From a virus, in the IMG/VR virus record IMGVR_UViG_2895706988_000001, positions 1 through 36,603 of that record: a stretch of DNA of 36,603 nt; one strand, 5' to 3'. This document shows positions 20,664 through 35,918 of the stretch, piece after piece. A program made the position numbers and the translations under genes. Each line of letters begins with the position of its first letter. The first letter of the stretch is position 1. Below the pieces are notes generated by a model. It was not told where the DNA came from and ran no database searches. It saw nothing but the letters and a program-made list of their open reading frames with translations.

Positions 20664-22322
20664 CTAAAAGTATTTATCGATTAAGTCGAATGTTTCTTCT
20701 AAATTAATGTCTACAATATCATCCGCTCTATATAAAGCATGTACAAACGCCATAAAACCGTCTGTTTTACGTCTAACTTCATCTTTTTTGATATATTCTT
20801 TGTTTCCGTTAGGTGTTATTTTTACAGCTACGTTATTCGTAAACCACCTCATCAAAGCGTTGTCTCCATATATAACGTTATGCTTTGCAAAAGCTGTATC
20901 AATACGTGGCGCTAATAATCCGTGGATAGCTTTAGGATTGCGAATAACTTCTAACTCAATTCCTGCATCTTTAAATGCTTTTCTTACGATGTCTGTTCGA
21001 TAGTTATCTGCTATGACTTTTTCTAGTCCATATTTTTCTCGCATACTTTCAAACCAACGGACAATATAGTCAATCTCAATAACATCATCATCAACTATTG
21101 TAAGCAACCCTTCTTTCTCCCATTCTGGAATAGGAGCCTCTAATTTCACTGTGTCTAAGAACCCTTGTCTTACAAACGAATGACTTATCCAAATATAATC
21201 ATCTCCATTCCTGAACAGCAATCCTACACTAGCGAAATCTCGAATATTAGCAAAATCTAATCCACCTACACAAGGTCTGCCACGTAAATCTGGTATAGGT
21301 CTGTTTGTCGCTAATATTTCTTCCCATGGCGCTATAACTTTTTCAAGGTCTACTTCTGGCAAATTCATTCTTTTAGTCATAAATTCAGGACGATTCGAAC
21401 GATTAAAAGGTAAATCATAATATTCTTCTTCAATCGTACTTTTCAATGTCTTTGCATAGTCACTTAATGGCTTATGTAACATAGGATTAGCTTTTTCCCA
21501 TTTCGTCATATCATCTACTTCTTGTGGATTATCTAATTTACAGTAAAAAGGAAATAACCTACTATTTTTGACCTTGCCAGCTAAGACGCTTTTTATTTTA
21601 TCTTTCATAGAATCCATATAACCTTCACGTATAAAGCCATCGGTGCTGATATAGAATGTTCTACGATTCTTTTTCTTACCTAGACCACCACGTTTTACGT
21701 TTACCATTTCGGGACCCATGAAATAATGAATTTCATCAAAAATAACACATCCTTCACGACCACCGTCTTTTGTTTTCGTGTTTGATGTGTTATATCTTAT
21801 TATCGACTTCGTAGACCTATTGAGTATTTCAGTCTTGCTAACCTCATATGGTGCGTTCATTGTTTTCCCGGTCTTATTTCTATTATTTTCAATAAGTATA
21901 TTTCTTATCTCGTCAAATGATGTTTTTGCTTGTTCTTCACTATTTGCCACGATTGATATATGGTATTCTTTAATGCCATGCAATGGTGTACTTAAAAAGT
22001 CACTTATGGCACTTATTAATCCGTTCTTACCACCGCCACGGCCCATGAATATCGCCAGTTCTGTAAAGAATGCTTCATTCGTCGTTTTATCAATTAAGAA
22101 AACATTAGATATAATAAAGCGTTGAAAAGGCAATGTAAGGAAGTACCACCGTTCTATGAACTTGATACAGTTATCAATCATTTCCTCATCAAAGAAGACG
22201 TCATCTCTACTGTAAATGTATGTTTGAAGATAATTAAATAAATCAATACGTTCTTGATTTAAAATTATCTTTCCGTCCTTCCATTGATTTATATAGTAAT
22301 CAACGTGCTTGTTTGTAATCAT
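20664..22322 (-). CDS. terL: Terminase large subunit
   Basis: 552 aa with Walker A-like FMGRGGGKNG and a downstream nuclease-half signature. Overlaps the TerS stop. Confidence 0.92.
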   Translation of the reverse strand: MITNKHVDYYINQWKDGKIILNQERIDLFNYLQTYIYSRDDVFFDEEMIDNCIKFIERWYFLTLPFQRFIISNVFLIDKTTNEAFFTELAIFMGRGGGKNGLISAISDFLSTPLHGIKEYHISIVANSEEQAKTSFDEIRNILIENNRNKTGKTMNAPYEVSKTEILNRSTKSIIRYNTSNTKTKDGGREGCVIFDEIHYFMGPEMVNVKRGGLGKKKNRRTFYISTDGFIREGYMDSMKDKIKSVLAGKVKNSRLFPFYCKLDNPQEVDDMTKWEKANPMLHKPLSDYAKTLKSTIEEEYYDLPFNRSNRPEFMTKRMNLPEVDLEKVIAPWEEILATNRPIPDLRGRPCVGGLDFANIRDFASVGLLFRNGDDYIWISHSFVRQGFLDTVKLEAPIPEWEKEGLLTIVDDDVIEIDYIVRWFESMREKYGLEKVIADNYRTDIVRKAFKDAGIELEVIRNPKAIHGLLAPRIDTAFAKHNVIYGDNALMRWFTNNVAVKITPNGNKEYIKKDEVRRKTDGFMAFVHALYRADDIVDINLEETFDLIDKYF

Positions 22323-22663
22323 ACATAATCATCAGACGGCGTGCTTAAATCCTCTTTTTCCTCTGGTAATAAATCAGAAAGTTGTTTGATAATCTTTTGG
22401 TATGCACCATCGCGAGCATTGAAAAGTTTTGCAACTGGACGTTCACGATCATAAGGCTCAACATTAGCGCTTTGTTGAAATTTCTCTACATCGCCATTTT
22501 CTCTTATATCCTCCCACATAAAATCTAGCAACACTCTTAATCGTGCAGCTTGTGTAATGAGACCATCCACAACTTTTAGTTTTTCTTGAGGGATATCTTT
22601 ATATATTGCTTTTAAGCGATTCTTTTCCTGTACCACCAAAGATTCATCAATTTTCATTTTCAT
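22319..22663 (-). CDS. terS: Terminase small subunit, P27 family
   Basis: ATG 22663 is preceded by GAAGGTGAT. The ORF-track start 22687 lacks an RBS. 114 aa, typical partner of the HNH gene in cos-type phages. Confidence 0.85.
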   Translation of the reverse strand: MKMKIDESLVVQEKNRLKAIYKDIPQEKLKVVDGLITQAARLRVLLDFMWEDIRENGDVEKFQQSANVEPYDRERPVAKLFNARDGAYQKIIKQLSDLLPEEKEDLSTPSDDYV

Positions 22664-22687
22664 ATTTATCACCTTCTTTCTGTCCAT

Positions 22688-22984: not shown

Positions 22985-23302
22985 TTACCATCGTTCGTCG
23001 TTCCATTGTTTCACCCTCTTCTGATATCTATCATGTTTCTTGTTATGACATTTAATACATAACGTGATTAAGTTACTGTCTACTAATGCAAGTTCGGGTC
23101 TGTCTTGCAGCTCTTCGATATGGTCAACGTCTAAGTACTTATGCTTAGTGCCTTGATTAAATCTATTCAAGTCAACTGTCACCTTTCCCTGCTTCTTGCA
23201 CTCTTGACATTCATAGTTGTCGCGCTTCAGTATCTCGTCTCGCTTACGTCTCCACGGTCTACTCTTATAAAACTTTATTCTTTCCTTCACCGTCTCATAC
23301 AT
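22985..23302 (-). CDS. HNH endonuclease (packaging-associated)
   Basis: ATG 23302 is preceded by AAGGAG. 105 aa with CQECKK...DHIEEL...CIKCHNKKH (HNH/zinc motifs). Confidence 0.88.
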   Translation of the reverse strand: MYETVKERIKFYKSRPWRRKRDEILKRDNYECQECKKQGKVTVDLNRFNQGTKHKYLDVDHIEELQDRPELALVDSNLITLCIKCHNKKHDRYQKRVKQWNDERW

Positions 23303-23363
23303 AAGAGTTAAGCTCCTTAATCTAGATACATAATGGATCACAATCCTTCCTGCTTATATCAAG

Positions 23364-23397
23364 CCAAAAGAAAAGACACCAACATGAGTTGATGTCT
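23364..23397 (-). terminator. Strong intrinsic terminator between accessory cassette and HNH gene
   Basis: 10-bp stem (23374-23397) that is perfect in minus-strand RNA, including one G-U pair. Followed by UUUCUUUUGG. Confidence 0.8.
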
Positions 23398-23435
23398 GTT
23401 TATAATTATCTACAATATAATATTACTACGTTTTA

Positions 23436-23486
23436 ATTATAAAAGTGTTCGTTATTTGTTCGGAAAAAGTTCGTGAAAAGTTCGTG
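23436..23486 (-). promoter_or_regulatory. Four helically phased GTTCG repeats abutting a TATAAT box (candidate activator-dependent late promoter)
   Basis: GTTCG starts at 23447, 23458, 23469 and 23480, an exact 11-bp period. The last two units are identical 11-mers AAAAGTTCGTG. The minus-strand TATAAT is at 23441-23436 with no -35 consensus. Confidence 0.45.
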
Positions 23487-23498
23487 TTAAACAACTTA

Positions 23499-24245
23499 TC
23501 AATTACTTTTTACCTTAAAATCTGTCATCAATTCAAACTCCATAATGTCATAATGTTTTCCATTTATCCATTCAGTATATCTTCTTATATAGCCTACTAT
23601 AAGTTTTAAGTTGGTGATTTTATTTCTTCCATAAATATTATTACTTTTTATCTCTATATTTAATATTGGCGGTCTTGAAATCACTCCAATTTTATATAAG
23701 TTTAATTGAATAATAAATTGTTCAGGTATATCTATTGGTATCACGAAATCTTTTGGAATACTTTCGTAATAATATAACTGTCTAGATGAATTGGGTATCT
23801 CAAAGGAAACTGATCTATCAGAAGATCTATACTTGAAAAGAGTCATATCATCTGATTTCTTTATCATATCTCTTTCTTCATCAATATTTAAATTTACTAT
23901 TGAATCGAATCTTACAGTTATAGATACGTTTGTTGCAATGGACTCCCCTATATTTCTAATATATATTAATGGCAGATCATTATCATCATATAATAATGGT
24001 ATATTTGGTCTCATCCAAATAGGCACTTCGCCCTTTGATTCAGAATATCTCTCCCAATCTTCTAAAGAGTTCCACCCTAGTAATGGTGAATTATGATAGA
24101 TGTGTCCAATTTCTGAATAAGTTTTATACTTATAAATATCAATAAAAAAATAATTTTCATACTTTTTTCTGCTGTCATTAATAGTAACAATCAAACTCAA
24201 TATAGCTATCAGCCACGGAATACTATTCTCGAAAAAATTTAACAT
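23499..24245 (-). CDS. Hypothetical membrane-anchored protein (accessory cassette gene 2)
   Basis: 248 aa with a single N-terminal TM helix (IPWLIAILSLIVTI). The rest is beta-rich and no family was recognised. RBS GAAAGGAAA. 60-nt blocks 23521-23580 and 23641-23700 have 17 and 15 G+C. Confidence 0.8.
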   Translation of the reverse strand: MLNFFENSIPWLIAILSLIVTINDSRKKYENYFFIDIYKYKTYSEIGHIYHNSPLLGWNSLEDWERYSESKGEVPIWMRPNIPLLYDDNDLPLIYIRNIGESIATNVSITVRFDSIVNLNIDEERDMIKKSDDMTLFKYRSSDRSVSFEIPNSSRQLYYYESIPKDFVIPIDIPEQFIIQLNLYKIGVISRPPILNIEIKSNNIYGRNKITNLKLIVGYIRRYTEWINGKHYDIMEFELMTDFKVKSN

Positions 24246-24275: not shown

Positions 24276-24725
24276 TTACAATTTATCAAGAATAGCTTCA
24301 TAGTGTTTTACAACCTCATCTTCAAGTATGAAATCCGTTCCATCACTCATTCTTACTCTTTCTTTTTCATCTACGATATATTCAATACATACAACTTCAT
24401 CAGATTTAGAAGAACTAATATTAGCTGTTACAATTCCATTCTTCTCATTAGAATCCGATTGTTTGTACATAAGTTTGACCCATTTACTGATTGGATAGTC
24501 TTTTACAATAATCCAAGGGTGTAGATCCGTTTGATTTATATTTATTTCGAATTTCTTTTGATATAATTCCCTACTCATTTTTGGTAGATAACTACTAAAT
24601 TTATTTATTAATTGTCTTTCTGCCTGGATTAATTTTGCAGTTCTTAAAGTCTCTCTCTCTTGATTTTCTTTTTCTTTTTCTTTTCTTAAATCATATTTTC
24701 TATTTGCATCATCAAATAATCCCAT
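24276..24725 (-). CDS. Hypothetical protein with charged coiled-coil N-terminus (accessory cassette gene 1)
   Basis: ATG 24725 is preceded by AGGAGTGG. The ORF-track start 24734 is a GTG. 149 aa, no family recognised. Confidence 0.8.
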   Translation of the reverse strand: MGLFDDANRKYDLRKEKEKENQERETLRTAKLIQAERQLINKFSSYLPKMSRELYQKKFEININQTDLHPWIIVKDYPISKWVKLMYKQSDSNEKNGIVTANISSSKSDEVVCIEYIVDEKERVRMSDGTDFILEDEVVKHYEAILDKL

Positions 24726-24751
24726 ATTAACCACTCCTAATAAATTTAGTT

Positions 24752-24783
24752 GAGTTATTCATATCTAATATTGTGTATAACTC
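24752..24783. repeat. Site L: quasi-palindrome 13-6-13 (GAGTTATTCATAT ctaata TTGTGTATAACTC)
   Basis: The half-sites are inverted copies of GAGTTAT(T/A)CA. The site lies 27 nt upstream of the cassette start codon. Confidence 0.85.
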
Positions 24784-24837
24784 ACTATTACATTATAACC
24801 CTATATGTATCAATACTTCTAGAAGTTATCTGAAAAT

Positions 24838-24868
24838 TAGTTATACATAGCTTAAATATGAATAACTC
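24838..24868. repeat. Site R: quasi-palindrome 13-5-13 (TAGTTATACATAG cttaa ATATGAATAACTC), inverted relative to site L
   Basis: The outer 13-mers of L and R are perfect reverse complements (24752-24764 vs 24856-24868). The inner 9-mers are also perfect reverse complements (24774-24782 vs 24839-24847). Confidence 0.85.
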
Positions 24869-24918: not shown

Positions 24919-24946
24919 AAAAAAAGACCTGAATATTATTCAAGTC
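24919..24946 (-). terminator. Intrinsic terminator ending the early/middle operon
   Basis: 8-bp stem (24926-24946) that is perfect in minus-strand RNA with one G-U pair, followed by seven U. Confidence 0.85.
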
Positions 24947-24947
24947 C

Positions 24948-25118
24948 TCATTTCCATCTCCTAGAATTATTTTTAAGTAGCTCTAATACTAAAATAAAAT
25001 CTTCTCTATTCATTCTCGGATAACGATCTGCAAGCTTATCTACAATCTGTTTAACATCTCTAATACTTTTTATATTATTACCATATAAACCGACATCATG
25101 AAAATCTCTAACATCCAT
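24948..25118 (-). CDS. Small hypothetical protein (56 aa)
   Basis: ATG 25118 is preceded by AGGAGG at 6-nt spacing. The ORF-track start is upstream and lacks an RBS. Confidence 0.65.
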   Translation of the reverse strand: MDVRDFHDVGLYGNNIKSIRDVKQIVDKLADRYPRMNREDFILVLELLKNNSRRWK

Positions 25119-25128
25119 TTTAGTCCTC

Positions 25129-25677
25129 CTAATATACAAATTCAAAGTTAGTCATAGCTTCGTCTATGCTATCCTGTGTTATACCAATGTATTTTAATGT
25201 TATAGCTTCACTACTATGATTAAATATCTTCTGCAGTGTAGCAACGTCTTTCGTTCCTTTGTAATAATGATATCCAAATGTTTTACGCATGCTGTGTGTT
25301 CCAATGGATTCCAGGTCAAAGTAATCTGTTAGCTCTCTTAATATCTTATATGACATGTCTCTGCTAATAGGCTTGTTAAATCCTTGTCTAGATTTAATTA
25401 TAAATTCTTCTGGCGGCTTACCTTTAATAAAATCATTGAGCGGTCCTTTTAAGTTCTTATGGATCACTATCTTACGTTGCTTACCTGTCTTTTGTTCTCG
25501 TAAACGAATCGTGTTGCCCTGCACTGATGAAACTCTTAACTGTAGAATATCAGATATTCTTAGACCACAATATATTCCAATCAAAAATAGAATATAATTA
25601 CGCTCATTCTTTTCTTTCAGATGTCTTTCAATGGCTATTATCATATCTGGATTACGAATAGGCTCTACAAAGTTCAT
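25129..25677 (-). CDS. Tyrosine recombinase-like protein, catalytic domain only (not the lysogeny integrase)
   Basis: 182 aa. Candidate catalytic residues are R40 (GLRISD), K63/K66 (EQKTGK), H128-x-x-R131 (HSMRKTFG), H154 (NHSS) and Y163 (LKYIG). There is no N-terminal core-binding domain. The start overlaps the ArpU stop (TAATG). Confidence 0.8.
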   Translation of the reverse strand: MNFVEPIRNPDMIIAIERHLKEKNERNYILFLIGIYCGLRISDILQLRVSSVQGNTIRLREQKTGKQRKIVIHKNLKGPLNDFIKGKPPEEFIIKSRQGFNKPISRDMSYKILRELTDYFDLESIGTHSMRKTFGYHYYKGTKDVATLQKIFNHSSEAITLKYIGITQDSIDEAMTNFEFVY

Positions 25678-26126
25678 TACTCAGCCACCTCCGAATACTC
25701 TTCTAATCCCAGGTAGAAAGCAAGTCGTATAATAGCATCATTCTTAATCTCATAGTACTTCGTCTTCCCTACACCTAATTCTGTATAAATATCAACATCT
25801 ATACCTCGTTCTTCCTGAAGATACTTATTAACGATAATATACTTTTCGTCAGGCTTTAAGTTGTCGATAGCATTATGCAGCTTATCCATTAGTTGCTGCC
25901 TTTCTATCATCATTTGCTCACGTTCAATATTCTTTGCTACACTCGACTCAATCTTATTCAGATCCATCACAGTTGTTGGTGGTTCTAAACTAAATGACTG
26001 AGTGACAGATGGATAACTTCTGATTGGCATAAGGCTTAATAGTCTGTTGTACTTGTTAAAAAGGTTATATACATTCTTTCTTGTTTGAATAAAATCCAGG
26101 TTCTTAATCTCTAATAATAAAGTCAT
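25677..26126 (-). CDS. ArpU-family late-gene transcriptional regulator
   Basis: 149 aa. The C-terminal HTH-like ELGVGKTKYYEIKNDAIIRLAFYLGL and overall pattern match ArpU/RinA-type phage late activators. Confidence 0.8.
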   Translation of the reverse strand: MTLLLEIKNLDFIQTRKNVYNLFNKYNRLLSLMPIRSYPSVTQSFSLEPPTTVMDLNKIESSVAKNIEREQMMIERQQLMDKLHNAIDNLKPDEKYIIVNKYLQEERGIDVDIYTELGVGKTKYYEIKNDAIIRLAFYLGLEEYSEVAE

Positions 26127-27909: not shown

Positions 27910-28422
27910 CTATATGTTTGTGTCCTTAGCGTTCAAGTAATCAAAATAATAACCATTCTGTGTCTTAATAACTTCTTTGTTCTGTTTAAACCACTGATAT
28001 GGAATACTCTTACGTTCTAATGATTCTTTTAACGTCATATATTCGTCTATATGGATTTGATATAATTCGTTAAAGTTGCGAAAGAATATAAGGATAAACG
28101 CTATGCCATTCAACTGCTTCACATCGCTTAAATATTCTTCCTGATGCTGCTTAACATTTTTGAAAGGAAAGCTCGACTGCTGACATTCCTTTGTATCAAA
28201 TGCTATAAATTGTCCTGTATGATATATGCCTACAAAGTCAACGATTGACTTCTCTGTATATTTCGCTCCTATAAGCTTGTCACCTTTTCTCGTTACTGCT
28301 GTTGGTGTTGGAACTTTAGTCACTAGTGCTATATTTCTATGCCTGTACATGTTATTCGTCTGTGTAATCCTATTCTCTAACCATCTGCCTCTAAAGCCTT
28401 GTTTATTATAATGTGCTACCAT
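27910..28422 (-). CDS. recU: RecU-type Holliday junction resolvase
   Basis: 170 aa. Motifs GRWLENRITQTNNMY, ALVTKVPTP, DFVGIY and FDTKE resemble Bacillus RecU. Confidence 0.85.
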   Translation of the reverse strand: MVAHYNKQGFRGRWLENRITQTNNMYRHRNIALVTKVPTPTAVTRKGDKLIGAKYTEKSIVDFVGIYHTGQFIAFDTKECQQSSFPFKNVKQHQEEYLSDVKQLNGIAFILIFFRNFNELYQIHIDEYMTLKESLERKSIPYQWFKQNKEVIKTQNGYYFDYLNAKDTNI

Positions 28423-35075: not shown

Positions 35076-35477
35076 ATGGTTGATAGAGACATGCCTTTAA
35101 AAAAGAAGATATCCTTTAATATTGAAAAGTACAGAAAAGAATTCGGTTGGACCCAGAAAGAATTAGCAGATAAAGCACAAATACCGAAGAGTACTATGTC
35201 CGACTATATTAACTGCAAAACTTTAATTAATGCTGGAAATGTTGAAAAACTAGCTAAAACTTTTAAAGTACAGAAATCTGATATAGATCCTTCTTTTGGA
35301 GATAAAGAAGAAAATAGATACGATATGGTACGTGAACTCGAACAAAAAGGGATTATCATTAATTTCTCAGATTATGAAGGTTTTGAGAGATTATCTGATG
35401 ATGAGAAGATAGAATTCCAAAAGAAAATTGAAGAAGCGGTTCAATTCGAACTTTTTAAGCGCAACAATCAAAAGTAG
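35076..35477 (+). CDS. CI-like XRE-family repressor without S24 autopeptidase domain
   Basis: 133 aa with HTH motif WTQKELADKAQIPKSTMSDYIN. The C-terminus is short and acidic with no Ser/Lys peptidase motif. Confidence 0.85.
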   Translation: MVDRDMPLKKKISFNIEKYRKEFGWTQKELADKAQIPKSTMSDYINCKTLINAGNVEKLAKTFKVQKSDIDPSFGDKEENRYDMVRELEQKGIIINFSDYEGFERLSDDEKIEFQKKIEEAVQFELFKRNNQK

Positions 35478-35492
35478 TAAGGAGATAATCTT

Positions 35493-35918
35493 ATGAGTGT
35501 TAAAGAGATATATTATAATCGAGGGATAAAAAATATAGAAGATTTGAATATTGATAATGTTGCAATGGCCTTTAACATCTCACTTCTCAAAGATTATCCA
35601 TTAGATGTCAGAGTAACATCAAATGATATAGATATTATTATGCTACAAACAAAAGATCCTATATCTATGACAGAGACTTTTTTTCACGAACTAGCTCATG
35701 TTTTGCGGCATGGACATACTCATATAAGTGAGAGTTACAGAAAGTACTGTGAAGGCCAGGCTAATAGACTTATGTATGAATTAGCTATACCTGATTTTAT
35801 GATCGATGAAAACGATATAGATTATAAGCATTTATGTACAAAATTCAAAGTAACCGAAGAATTTGCCCTAAAGAGAGTAGAACAACTAATACATAAAAAT
35901 TTATGGAATTCTGCATAG
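35493..35918 (+). CDS. ImmA/IrrE-family zinc metallopeptidase
   Basis: 141 aa with the HExxH motif FFHELAHVLRH. It lies immediately downstream of the XRE repressor, as in ImmR/ImmA pairs. Confidence 0.85.
   Translation: MSVKEIYYNRGIKNIEDLNIDNVAMAFNISLLKDYPLDVRVTSNDIDIIMLQTKDPISMTETFFHELAHVLRHGHTHISESYRKYCEGQANRLMYELAIPDFMIDENDIDYKHLCTKFKVTEEFALKRVEQLIHKNLWNSA

Follow-up and report, generated by a model that had tools for sequence, protein, structure and literature searches.

A conserved pair of inverted recombinase-type sites beside a small RecV-like recombinase gene is probably a fixed control element in phages of Gram-positive hosts

We analyzed a stretch of 36,603 nucleotides (36.6 kb, referred to here as the window) from a prophage of Macrococcoides caseolyticum. 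The region of interest contains a late activator gene, a short recombinase gene, a terminator, a pair of recombinase-type sites, and a two-gene cassette. These features are listed below in the direction of transcription.

25677..26126, minus strand: gene for a late transcriptional activator (packaging/lysis) of the ArpU family; its stop codon and the recombinase start codon overlap
25129..25677, minus strand: gene for the short tyrosine recombinase Int (182 aa), RecV-like, with no N-terminal core-binding domain
24948..25118, minus strand: 56-aa ORF (a gene call) between the recombinase gene and the terminator
24923..24949, minus strand: predicted intrinsic terminator just upstream of R, with a 12-bp stem and a T-run
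24838..24868, minus strand: R, the recombinase-proximal 13-5-13 site, with conserved arms and a variable center; putative accessory site
24784..24837, minus strand: core between L and R, 54 bp, promoter-like, with a putative promoter role
24752..24783, minus strand: L, the gene-proximal and recombinase-distal 13-6-13 site; putative core (crossover-competent) site
24276..24725, minus strand: first cassette gene, coding for 149 aa from an ATG or 152 aa from a GTG at 24734
23499..24245, minus strand: second cassette gene, coding for 231-248 aa with a hydrophobic N-terminus

The activator was assigned to the ArpU family by NCBIfam TIGR01637 (99.6 bits against a cut-off of 43.1) and PHROG 248. The predicted terminator (24949-24923; RNA fold of -12.7 kcal/mol, z -4.7) closes the operon made up of the activator gene, the recombinase gene, and the 56-aa ORF. 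Neither the 56-aa ORF nor the two cassette proteins matched a Pfam, PHROGs, or NCBIfam family, and PADLOC returned nothing for these three proteins or for Int. A tblastn search for the 56-aa ORF in 24 pattern-fetched loci (L001-L024) found no homolog. We therefore rejected the 56-aa protein as a site-binding partner, and by this comparison the ORF is not a conserved partner of the element. The first cassette gene, which directly follows L, was found in few relatives. In the window, the cassette and a second regulatory region stand between L and an HNH gene; in locus L022, the HNH-terminase genes begin 15 bp past L. A promoter that depends on the late activator is expected to follow the activator gene and precede the packaging genes (PMC3753634), and the position of the element fits this expectation. 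The order of activator, element, and packaging genes also holds in Bacillus, Clostridioides, and Streptococcus phages. Lytic-cycle transcription in phage JD032 covers an Int homolog along with HNH and terminase genes (PMC7205517).

Profile matches, catalytic residues, and a predicted fold all place Int in the tyrosine recombinase superfamily. Int scored 78.7 bits against Pfam Phage_integrase (PF00589; gathering score 27.1, E 5.6e-22, residues 21-164) and matched the PHROG 216 integrase at E 2e-64. The catalytic residues R40, K63, H128, R131, H154, and Y163 are all intact. They are invariant in the family, in 19 of 19 and 122 of 122 aligned sequences, and the set of 122 includes RecV. An AlphaFold2 model of Int (mean pLDDT 81.9) gave XerA as its best Foldseek match (E 3e-9, TM 0.77), and XerH, Tn1549 Int, Cre, and lambda Int were also recovered. 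Int shares 32% identity over 157 aa with RecV from Clostridioides difficile (188 aa; E 3e-23, hhalign probability 99.5%), a value far under the 55-65% seen inside the phage family. The NCBIfam models for "tyrosine-type DNA invertase" gave weak matches to Int (E 6e-5 and 1e-4) that fall far below their cut-offs. A first-pass annotation of this DNA had placed a catalytic-domain-only tyrosine recombinase near the sites, and this was confirmed: the Int ORF ends 261 bp from R, with the element downstream of the gene. In total, we found at least 7,940 Int-related proteins.

The element spans 117 bp (24752-24868) and is intact in an integrated prophage on a 1.11-Mb chromosomal contig, so its identity as attP was rejected. 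Four GAGTTATnCA half-sites form two 13-(5/6)-13 sites separated by 54 bp (24784-24837). L reads GAGTTATTCATAT-CTAATA-TTGTGTATAACTC (13-6-13), which is GAGTTATACACAA-TATTAG-ATATGAATAACTC in the direction of transcription. R reads TAGTTATACATAG-CTTAA-ATATGAATAACTC (13-5-13), or GAGTTATTCATAT-TTAAG-CTATGTATAACTA in the direction of transcription. The pair had been described as two lox/dif-like sites whose outer 13-mers are reverse complements. As to form, both descriptions hold: the sites are of the tyrosine recombinase type, with 13-bp arms flanking a 5-6-bp spacer, and the outer 13-mers match exactly (an inverted-repeat search gave 17 nt at 94%). The inner arms of L and R have AGTTATACA in common. 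Four copies of GAGTTAT(T/A)CA had also been reported; there are four half-sites, but one of them carries one mismatch.

The three exact copies of GAGTTATWCA and the single-mismatch copy form the sole such cluster in the 36.6 kb. Allowing up to one mismatch, the window contains 13 matches against 7.75 expected, and those outside the element are scattered singles. The expected rate gives an estimate of about 0.025 half-site matches per 117 bp, so the chance of finding four in palindromic register is negligible. The strongest proof that the element is real comes from other genomes: the full 117 bp aligns in 18 other viral contigs that have different flanks. A relaxed scan of the 36.6-kb window for further 13-N-13 sites found no credible partner. 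An integron-like platform was rejected because each locus has at most one site pair and the window holds no other credible site.

The context of the core suggests that it acts as a promoter: a terminator lies upstream, and a ribosome-binding site and a start codon follow at a distance of 13-30 bp. The annotated minus-strand TATAAT was found at 24797-24792, and a TTGATA lies at 24813-24808, with a separation of just 10 bp. This TATAAT is conserved among Macrococcus-type elements and has no properly spaced -35 box. A second proposed pair, TTGATA-17-TAATAG, is present (our scanner reported TTGATA-18-AATAGT, 9/12), but its second box is not conserved in relatives. The description of a promoter-like core ahead of the cassette proved apt for the window phage, where the core heads the variable two-gene cassette. 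A ATTTTCAGA block adjoins R within the core, and a TGATA..AGGG block is shared with the B. cereus-type core. No sigma-A -10 box was found in the B. cereus-type core, and the promoter is thus itself putative. A candidate sigma-A -10 box inside the center of L was dropped on inspection, as its final base is not T and a -35 box is absent. We also rejected a small ORF that runs from the core through L in B. cereus-type elements (e.g. MKSMIPRD..THNIRYG): 48 of 132 elements have no start codon for it, and in others it is truncated. This ORF had been appealing because it would turn the T/A difference in the L spacer into a synonymous one. Its frame contains three stop codons in Macrococcus.

Genome comparisons indicate that the element is conserved and accompanies a small RecV-like recombinase gene in hundreds of phages that infect Gram-positive bacteria. 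The module recurs in Macrococcus and Bacillus cereus-group phages, and related versions are present in Paenibacillus-like, Clostridioides, and Streptococcus phages. Of 80 loci fetched solely by Int similarity, 50 contained the element; the starts of the two sites lie 84 bp apart in 47 of these loci and 85 bp apart in the other 3. Every Macrococcus-type locus that bears Int has the element downstream of it. The sites of most relatives measure 32 bp. In the main lineages, the start-to-start separation is fixed at 84-86 bp, and the core spans 52-54 bp; in two lineages the sites lie about 110 bp apart, center to center, which is out of helical phase with 84-86 bp. A megablast search of GenBank phages with the region gave no match, and distant blastn recovered the recombinase gene alone. 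In the literature searched, we found no description of the site pair and no function assigned to the phage short integrase.

The sequence of the arms differs between lineages. Arms read GAGTTATnCA in Macrococcus, CAGTTACnCA in the B. cereus group, GAATATAACA in L047-type loci, GAGTTTAACA in phiCD6356, and AATnAGACA and AATnTnACA in Streptococcus phages. These sequences covary with the Int lineage while the activator family differs. The activator beside the element is of the ArpU family in Macrococcus and B. cereus phages and of the phi31 type in 315.1, and unrelated proteins of 133-185 aa occupy the activator position in L001, L022, and L047. The suggested link between the sites and the neighboring recombinase is supported: both are found together in one lineage after another, and the arms change with the lineage. 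The center of L, AATAT(T/A)AGATAT, is kept across genera in Macrococcus, B. cereus-group, Paenibacillus-like, and Streptococcus phages. The center of R is variable among close relatives, with an information content of 1.22 bits compared to 1.68 for L. In 4 of 16 Macrococcus loci, Int has an in-frame deletion and the element is intact, and in one locus Int and R are present and the core and L are absent.

The first-pass annotation had interpreted the segment as an inverton that makes expression phase-variable. The comparative evidence argues against this interpretation. Among 60 distinct elements, there was no case in which the L spacer equaled the R spacer or its reverse complement, and the spacer lengths are sometimes unequal. 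The spacers in the window are CTAATA (L) and CTTAA (R). In 49 of 50 loci, the L-type conserved center occupied the recombinase-distal site; in none was it at the recombinase-proximal site. Since spacer exchange would swap or homogenize the spacers, the fact that the L-type center is never proximal disfavors inversion. We sought both orientations in the assemblies of relatives and found the core in the same orientation relative to the recombinase gene at every locus examined. BtCS33, the linear record of which ends near the HNH gene, shows this orientation as well. A pattern diagnostic of the flipped state had no matches in assembled genomes, compared to at least 120 for the normal state. The proposed RecV site has a 13-6-13 form with AGTW near the outer end and requires identical spacers, and unequal or shortened spacers (5 vs 6 bp) were reported to greatly reduce inversion (PMC12282940). 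The caveats that accompanied the inverton proposal, namely the unequal spacers and the location of the recombinase in the lytic operon, stand up better than the proposal itself. We conclude that the element is probably a fixed binding and control site and not a flip-flop switch.

We propose that the element is the cognate target of the adjacent Int and that it serves as a fixed composite site, similar to res or IRS, that would act as a clamp on the promoter. We give this reading a probability of about 0.42, and the function it assigns is tentative. The resemblance to Tn3 res and Tn4430 IRS was drawn because several recombinase-binding sites overlap a promoter. L and R bracket a conserved core, right after the terminator of the activator-Int operon and right before the next gene. 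Int dimers on L and R would pair in cis to form a tetramer that loops the 52-54-bp core. With heterologous spacers, the L-R synapse would be unable to complete strand exchange and so could act as a nucleoprotein clamp. R would sit at about -45 to -80 and L in the early transcribed region. Once Int has been made from the lytic middle operon, such a clamp may set the timing of cassette transcription or restrain it, and in other phages it may do the same for the packaging genes. An alternative offered alongside the inverton, a pair of dimer sites that loop out the promoter, fares better than the inverton, although we infer the looping itself.

The two sites would have different roles in the proposed composite site. 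L has conserved arms and a conserved asymmetric center and would be the only crossover-competent site. L copies on sister genomes would be identical, and L may recombine solely with an identical L on another genome copy, leading to multimer/monomer interconversion or module exchange. R would be an accessory site that fixes the architecture. Several points count against the composite site. Occupancy of the sites by Int, and not by another factor, is itself putative. A pure clamp would not need catalytic residues, yet these are invariant. The benefit of L x L recombination is not obvious for an integrated cos-type phage. The persistence of the element in the Int-deleted Macrococcus loci indicates that Int is dispensable for its maintenance there, and the site separation of about 110 bp in two lineages is off the helical phase. 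The promoter on which the clamp would act is also putative, as the B. cereus-type core has no sigma-A -10 box.

An alternative that we consider unlikely is that L, and independently R, is simply a lox/dif-like site for Int-mediated recombination between genome copies. Recombination would then serve multimer formation or resolution before packaging, or module exchange, with no role in transcription. The invariant catalytic residues agree with this explanation, as does the L spacer, which is asymmetric and conserved like that of a real crossover site. Also in its favor are Int proteins that are 98% identical between phages whose TerL share just 22-28% identity, and by a junction between conserved upstream and variable downstream sequence within or at the edge of L. 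Linkage analysis tied the left arm of L to the core (z 9-10) and its outer 3 nt to the flank (z 3-7.5), which placed the mosaic junction between arm position 11 and position 30 of L. However, the junction enters the right arm of L in L154 and L231, which resembles imprecise mosaicism and not a precise crossover in the spacer. A pure recombination site would also leave the second site at a fixed 84-86 bp unexplained, along with the conserved core and the constant position between the terminator and the next gene, and multimer resolution has no obvious gain for cos phages.

A more speculative idea, which we regard as a long shot, is that active Int works on a deliberately mismatched site pair. 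A non-recombining synapse would form across the promoter that heads the cassette or packaging genes, and transient cleavage at the center of L would provide a catalysis-dependent switch. Cleavage of L might license late transcription or trigger a change from circle-to-circle to rolling-circle replication. Thousands of Firmicute siphophages would share the device, and RecV would have been domesticated from it as an offshoot.

It is improbable that the sites are operators for another protein, such as an ArpU-type late activator, the 56-aa protein, or a host factor, and that the adjacency of the recombinase is incidental. The element does lie where late-activator-dependent promoters are expected (PMC3753634), and it is intact in the four Int-deleted prophages. 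However, the same architecture with related arms appears alongside activators of different families, and the 56-aa ORF had no homolog in the 24 pattern-fetched loci. The arms are 21-22 bp apart, center to center, around a 5-6-bp spacer. This geometry fits a tyrosine recombinase dimer and not a helix-turn-helix dimer, and the arms resemble the proposed RecV site.

We find it very improbable that recombination between L and R by Int inverts the 54-bp promoter segment as a phase-variable or developmental switch for the cassette. The layout is suggestive: two full sites stand in inverted orientation, with the outer arms matching each other and the inner arms likewise. The adjacent enzyme is homologous to the proven invertase RecV and has a domain-poor build like that of FimB and FimE. 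The distance of 84-86 bp is also close to the smallest loop that a tyrosine recombinase synapse tolerates, as known from work on Cre. Against this stand the spacers, which are identical in none of the 60 elements in either orientation though the RecV model needs identity, and the conserved spacer, which keeps the same site and direction. A single orientation was seen at all loci with flank information, the BtCS33 phage genome record included, and the flipped-state pattern was missing from the assemblies. Finally, lysogens would not make Int, as its gene belongs to the lytic operon.

An RNA-level role, with L as a 5'-leader hairpin that stabilizes the transcript or masks the ribosome-binding site and R as part of the upstream terminator region, is the least credible explanation: L would be transcribed if the start follows TATAAT and its fold with flanks is modest (-8.5 kcal/mol, z -2.0), but the hairpins are weak (-4.3 and -5.8 kcal/mol, z -1.5 and -2.3), the four arms shift jointly between lineages (T to C at arm position 7) and not pairwise per hairpin, the best-conserved part of L is its unpaired center, and the element has no Rfam match at E up to 1.

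Among temperate phages of Bacillus, Clostridioides, Streptococcus, Macrococcus, and their relatives, many encode a "second integrase" of about 180 aa between the late-activator and packaging genes, and its role has been stated as unclear (PMC3335513). Three results would make this role directly testable. The element provides a precise, conserved putative DNA target for the protein. The target brackets a putative promoter at the middle-to-late boundary. The family is linked to RecV, the master invertase of C. difficile virulence switches, and the window element offers an approach to how an invertase-type enzyme is used on a site pair that is unable to invert. The element also bears on annotation. 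Inverted recombinase sites with an adjacent recombinase gene are insufficient for an inverton call, and such annotation must check spacer identity and orientation polymorphism.

We compared the element and Int to known recombinase systems. RecV, which acts on the cwpV, flgB, and other switches of C. difficile, resembles Int in its length (~185 aa) and in its catalytic residues, and like Int it has no N-terminal DNA-binding domain, as described in PMC12282940. The sites share a form in which a ~6-bp spacer separates two ~13-bp motifs. The proposed RecV site has AGTW close to its outer end; the flgB repeat of RecV reads AAGTTACTAT... compared to CAGTTACTCAT in the window element. In both systems, the sites are paired in inversion around regulatory DNA. 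Int is thus homologous to an experimentally proven promoter/leader invertase with proposed 13-6-13 sites. A RecV switch carries the same spacer at both ends, in inverted repeat, whereas the two spacers of a phage element never match (0/60). RecV segments measure 154-195 bp and occur in both orientations in cultures, whereas the phage segment measures 52-54 bp and was seen in one orientation. Finally, recV is chromosomal and far from its sites, whereas the phage Int gene is adjacent and in a lytic operon.

FimB and FimE of E. coli are also short (~200 aa) tyrosine recombinases, and they are encoded beside a promoter flanked by inverted sites (fimS). Their sequence relationship to Int is at the superfamily level only. 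The 314-bp fimS element, whose 9-bp inverted repeats are identical, occurs in both orientations and depends on IHF and Lrp. The res sites of Tn3 and gamma-delta and the TnpI IRS of Tn4430 and Tn5401 from Bacillus thuringiensis span about 115-120 bp and adjoin the recombinase gene. They contain several recombinase-binding motifs, one pair of which is the crossover site while the rest are accessory, and because promoters overlap these sites, transcription too is regulated by the recombinase. Unlike Int, the resolvase of Tn3 belongs to the serine recombinases. TnpI has an N-terminal domain and direct-repeat accessory motifs, unlike Int and its inverted sites. Sites of the res and IRS type resolve cointegrates, whereas no resolution substrate is evident for the window phage.

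Cre-loxP of phage P1 likewise pairs a phage tyrosine recombinase with a site that has 13-bp arms and lies beside the gene, near the packaging region, and Cre was among the Foldseek matches of the Int model. Cre-loxP differs in its lone site, whose spacer is 8 bp long, and in that Cre carries a DNA-binding domain at its N-terminus; the system serves cyclization and plasmid dimer resolution. The master repressor MrpR (YopR) of the Bacillus phage SPbeta, another structural match of the Int model, represents a tyrosine recombinase fold that is used as a DNA-binding transcription regulator at repeated sites (PMC10516654). MrpR has lost recombinase function, whereas Int keeps every catalytic residue and lies in the lytic operon.

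The window corresponds to a prophage carried by a chromosomal contig of 1.11 Mb (assembly GCA_004359835.1), and nearly all of its genes lie on the minus strand. Those around the candidate element are, in transcription order:

25677-26126, minus: ArpU-family late activator (NCBIfam TIGR01637, 99.6 bits)
25129-25677, minus: tyrosine recombinase, 182 aa (Pfam PF00589)
24948-25118, minus: 56-aa ORF, 3' of the recombinase gene
24949-24923, minus: strong intrinsic terminator, between the 56-aa ORF and the element
24868-24752, minus: the element (R, core, L), after the terminator and before the cassette genes
24725-24276, minus: first cassette gene, after L; function unassigned, 149/152 aa
24245-23499, minus: second cassette gene, 3' of the first; function unassigned, 231/248 aa, hydrophobic N-terminus
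23366-23484, minus: second regulatory region, 3' of the cassette stop codon and 5' of the HNH gene
22985-23341, minus: HNH endonuclease gene, followed by the terminase genes
22319-22687, minus: small terminase gene, 3' of the HNH gene
20664-22322, minus: large terminase gene, with the portal gene next in order

The recombinase start codon overlaps the ArpU stop codon. The early region encodes a RecU-type Holliday-junction resolvase (27910-28422), and the right end carries a plus-strand lysogeny module (35076-35918) with Cro/CI-type HTH repressor and ImmA/IrrE-type metallopeptidase genes.

Re-reading the window returned the same sequences for sites L (24752-24783) and R (24838-24868) as the first-pass annotation. 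Exact copies of GAGTTATWCA are confined to the element across the whole window, where we found no further credible 13-N-13 site. In the core, a minus-strand TATAAT and a TTGATA are present, but their spacing is only 10 bp. The TTGATA-17-TAATAG pair also exists, but it is specific to this phage.

We examined how widely this arrangement occurs. A site-pattern scan of viral contigs gave 24 loci, and the full 117-bp element aligns in 18 of them, with both flanks differing. In loci with flank information, the element has a constant orientation and lies 3' of a recombinase homologue (97%, or 46-52% identity) or an ArpU gene. A second set of 80 loci was fetched by recombinase similarity alone; 50 have the site pair downstream of the recombinase gene, and the starts of the two sites are 84 bp apart in 47 of these and 85 bp apart in the other 3. 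Bacillus phage BtCS33, Clostridium phage phiCD6356, and Streptococcus phages 315.1 and Javan310 share the layout, as does Bacillus phage PHBA67-J, in which it has been shifted by an IS element together with a cargo gene. Arm sequences vary by lineage (GAGTTATnCA, CAGTTACnCA, GAATATAACA, GAGTTTAACA, AATnAGACA) while the geometry is constant. The upstream activator family also changes between lineages. Mainly because the recombinase is the constant partner, we infer from this co-occurrence that L and R are its putative sites.

The closest homologue of the recombinase is from Macrococcoides caseolyticum (98% identity). At least 7,940 proteins match the family at E values up to 1e-5; nearly all are about 180 aa long, with 55-65% identity across Bacillaceae, and every catalytic residue is invariant across the aligned recombinases. 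An AlphaFold2 model (pLDDT 81.9) shows a tyrosine-recombinase catalytic domain preceded by a single short helix, and the structures it most closely resembles are those of XerA, XerH, Tn1549 Int, Cre, and lambda Int. We located the Clostridioides difficile RecV gene through published cloning primers. RecV (188 aa) and the window recombinase are 32% identical (E 3e-23, hhalign 99.5%) and alike in architecture; a 2025 study reported that RecV lacks an N-terminal DNA-binding domain (PMC12282940). The RecV flgB repeat AAGTT(A/G)CTAT... (PMC5386303) is similar to the CAGTTACTCAT arm of the phage sites. RecV (L111:5936-6508, C. difficile chromosome) contains the family motifs GLRISDIL, E-KTGK, NHSS..T.RYI, and a C-terminal Q..I.EA..NF, and has an additional insertion of about 20 aa following the first helix. 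RecV may have descended from this family of short phage integrases.

The first-pass annotation proposed that L-R recombination flips the core as an inverton. The proposed RecV site has a 6-bp spacer between two 13-bp motifs (AWAGTWNCCNTTW), both ends of RecV switches are argued to carry identical spacers, and a 5-versus-6-bp spacer is proposed to reduce RecV inversion efficiency (PMC12282940). None of 60 elements has identical L and R spacers in either orientation, and in the window the two are unequal in length too. Crossover would swap or homogenize the spacers, and the conserved spacer keeps its side and direction, so spacer exchange is disfavored. In every Macrococcus-type locus, in each of the 40 strictly matched pairs, and in 114 (plus 4) further B. 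cereus-type loci, the core faces the same way with respect to the recombinase gene. The BtCS33 genome, a linear record ending near the HNH gene, has the same orientation. Finally, we searched for the R outer arm fused to the reverse complement of the L inner arm, a pattern that arises only from R-L spacer crossover. It had no match in 2.9 million viral contigs, where the normal-state pattern matched at least 120 times. Judged by sequence across the assembled loci, an inverton is a very unlikely reading of the element.

L and R also differ in character. On the transcription-direction strand, the L centre is A-A-T-A-T-(T/A)-A-G-A-T-A-T and is kept from Macrococcus through Bacillus to Streptococcus; the R centre varies even between close relatives. 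Across 60 distinct elements, the information content of the centre reaches 1.68 bits in L, against 1.22 bits in R. Of 50 loci, 49 have the L-type centre in the recombinase-distal site; none has it in the proximal site. The L spacer reads TATTAT instead of TATTAG in two loci with a deleted recombinase (L123 and L124) and one that retains it (L119). Among 103 distinct B. cereus-type elements, the 52-bp core is strongly conserved (consensus AAAAGAGAAAGT...TCAATGATAnCAAGGG...) and lacks a sigma-A -10 box. The Macrococcus core has a TGATA..AGGG block in common with it, plus the TATAAT box.

What follows L differs in nearly every phage, so this position behaves as a cargo hotspot; in many phages cargo genes are inserted immediately past L. 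In the window, the element heads the two-gene cassette, and a separate conserved region then precedes the HNH gene. The cassette proteins had no match in Pfam, PHROG, NCBIfam, or PADLOC and are confined to a few relatives (95-99% identity in loci L002 and L011, 48% in L008). HNH-terminase genes begin 15 bp past L in the related locus L022, and the packaging region directly follows the element in phiCD6356, 315.1, and Javan310. In locus L114 (2905-3200) the recombinase gene and R are intact, but similarity ends 10 bp past R; the core, L, and cassette are absent, and a CGAAC-repeat region and the HNH gene come directly next. These layouts place the element, in general, where the activator-recombinase operon meets the next genes.

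Mosaicism around this boundary is extreme. Four related loci (L003, L007, L009, and L023) have recombinases 97-98% and ArpU proteins about 91% identical to those of the window, with only 22-24% identity in the large terminase and about 38% in HNH, and their module boundary coincides with the element. With a 98%-identical recombinase, terminases are 22-28% identical. Linkage analysis placed the conserved-upstream/variable-downstream junction within L or at its outer edge.

Past the cassette stop codon and ahead of the HNH ribosome-binding site is the second regulatory region. It has four CGAAC direct repeats, one every 11 bp (relatives have three to six), then TAATATTATATTGTAGATAA, then a terminator-like hairpin with a T-run (23397-23374) whose structure, but not sequence, is kept in relatives. 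This region could be a late promoter bound by the activator, with an attenuator in its leader. A B. cereus-type phage has a terminator-like hairpin about 60 nt past L, ahead of the next ORF (L083:3247-3265), a promoter-leader-terminator layout reminiscent of antitermination-controlled late operons.

An in-frame deletion leaving M-TNFEFIY has removed the recombinase in 4 of 16 Macrococcus loci. Across the Macrococcus prophage contigs L002, L023, and L123-L126, the start codon is fused to the last seven recombinase codons (M-TNFEFIY*). The deletion, which probably arose via repeated ATGA..AATTTTGA microhomology, is common to prophages with different downstream cargo. All of them retain an intact L-R element, so the recombinase is not essential for the element's persistence. 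These deletions argue against an indispensable co-activator role for the recombinase.

We compared these findings with published work. According to the phIS3501 paper, it is unclear what the second integrase does (PMC3335513), and work on the late-activator superfamily makes no reference to it (PMC3753634). A homologue in phage JD032 is transcribed in the lytic cycle alongside the HNH and terminase genes (PMC7205517). Tyrosine-recombinase-fold regulators that have lost catalysis, MrpR/YopR, are known in Bacillus phages (PMC10516654). Our full-text literature search found no published description of the L-R site pair.

We propose that recombinase dimers would bind L and R and pair in cis, looping out the core; this pairing is suggested by the constant 84-86 bp separation of the sites and by the pseudo-dyad that their outer and inner arms form. 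Because the heterologous spacers would prevent strand exchange, the cis synapse could act as a regulatory clamp on the putative promoter. The invariance of the active site argues for catalysis that is still in use. The sole competent partner of L would be a second L, carried by a sister genome or a co-infecting one. L x L exchange and ordinary mosaicism fit the junction at L and the terminase divergence equally well. We file the element as a RecV-type enzyme with putative cognate lox-like sites at a putative phage promoter, in a switch-like layout with one fixed orientation. The geometry of the proposed L-R loop is like that of the lac O1-O3 and gal OE-OI repression loops, and the element resembles the multi-subsite recombination sites that overlap promoters, such as Tn3 res and the TnpI IRS.
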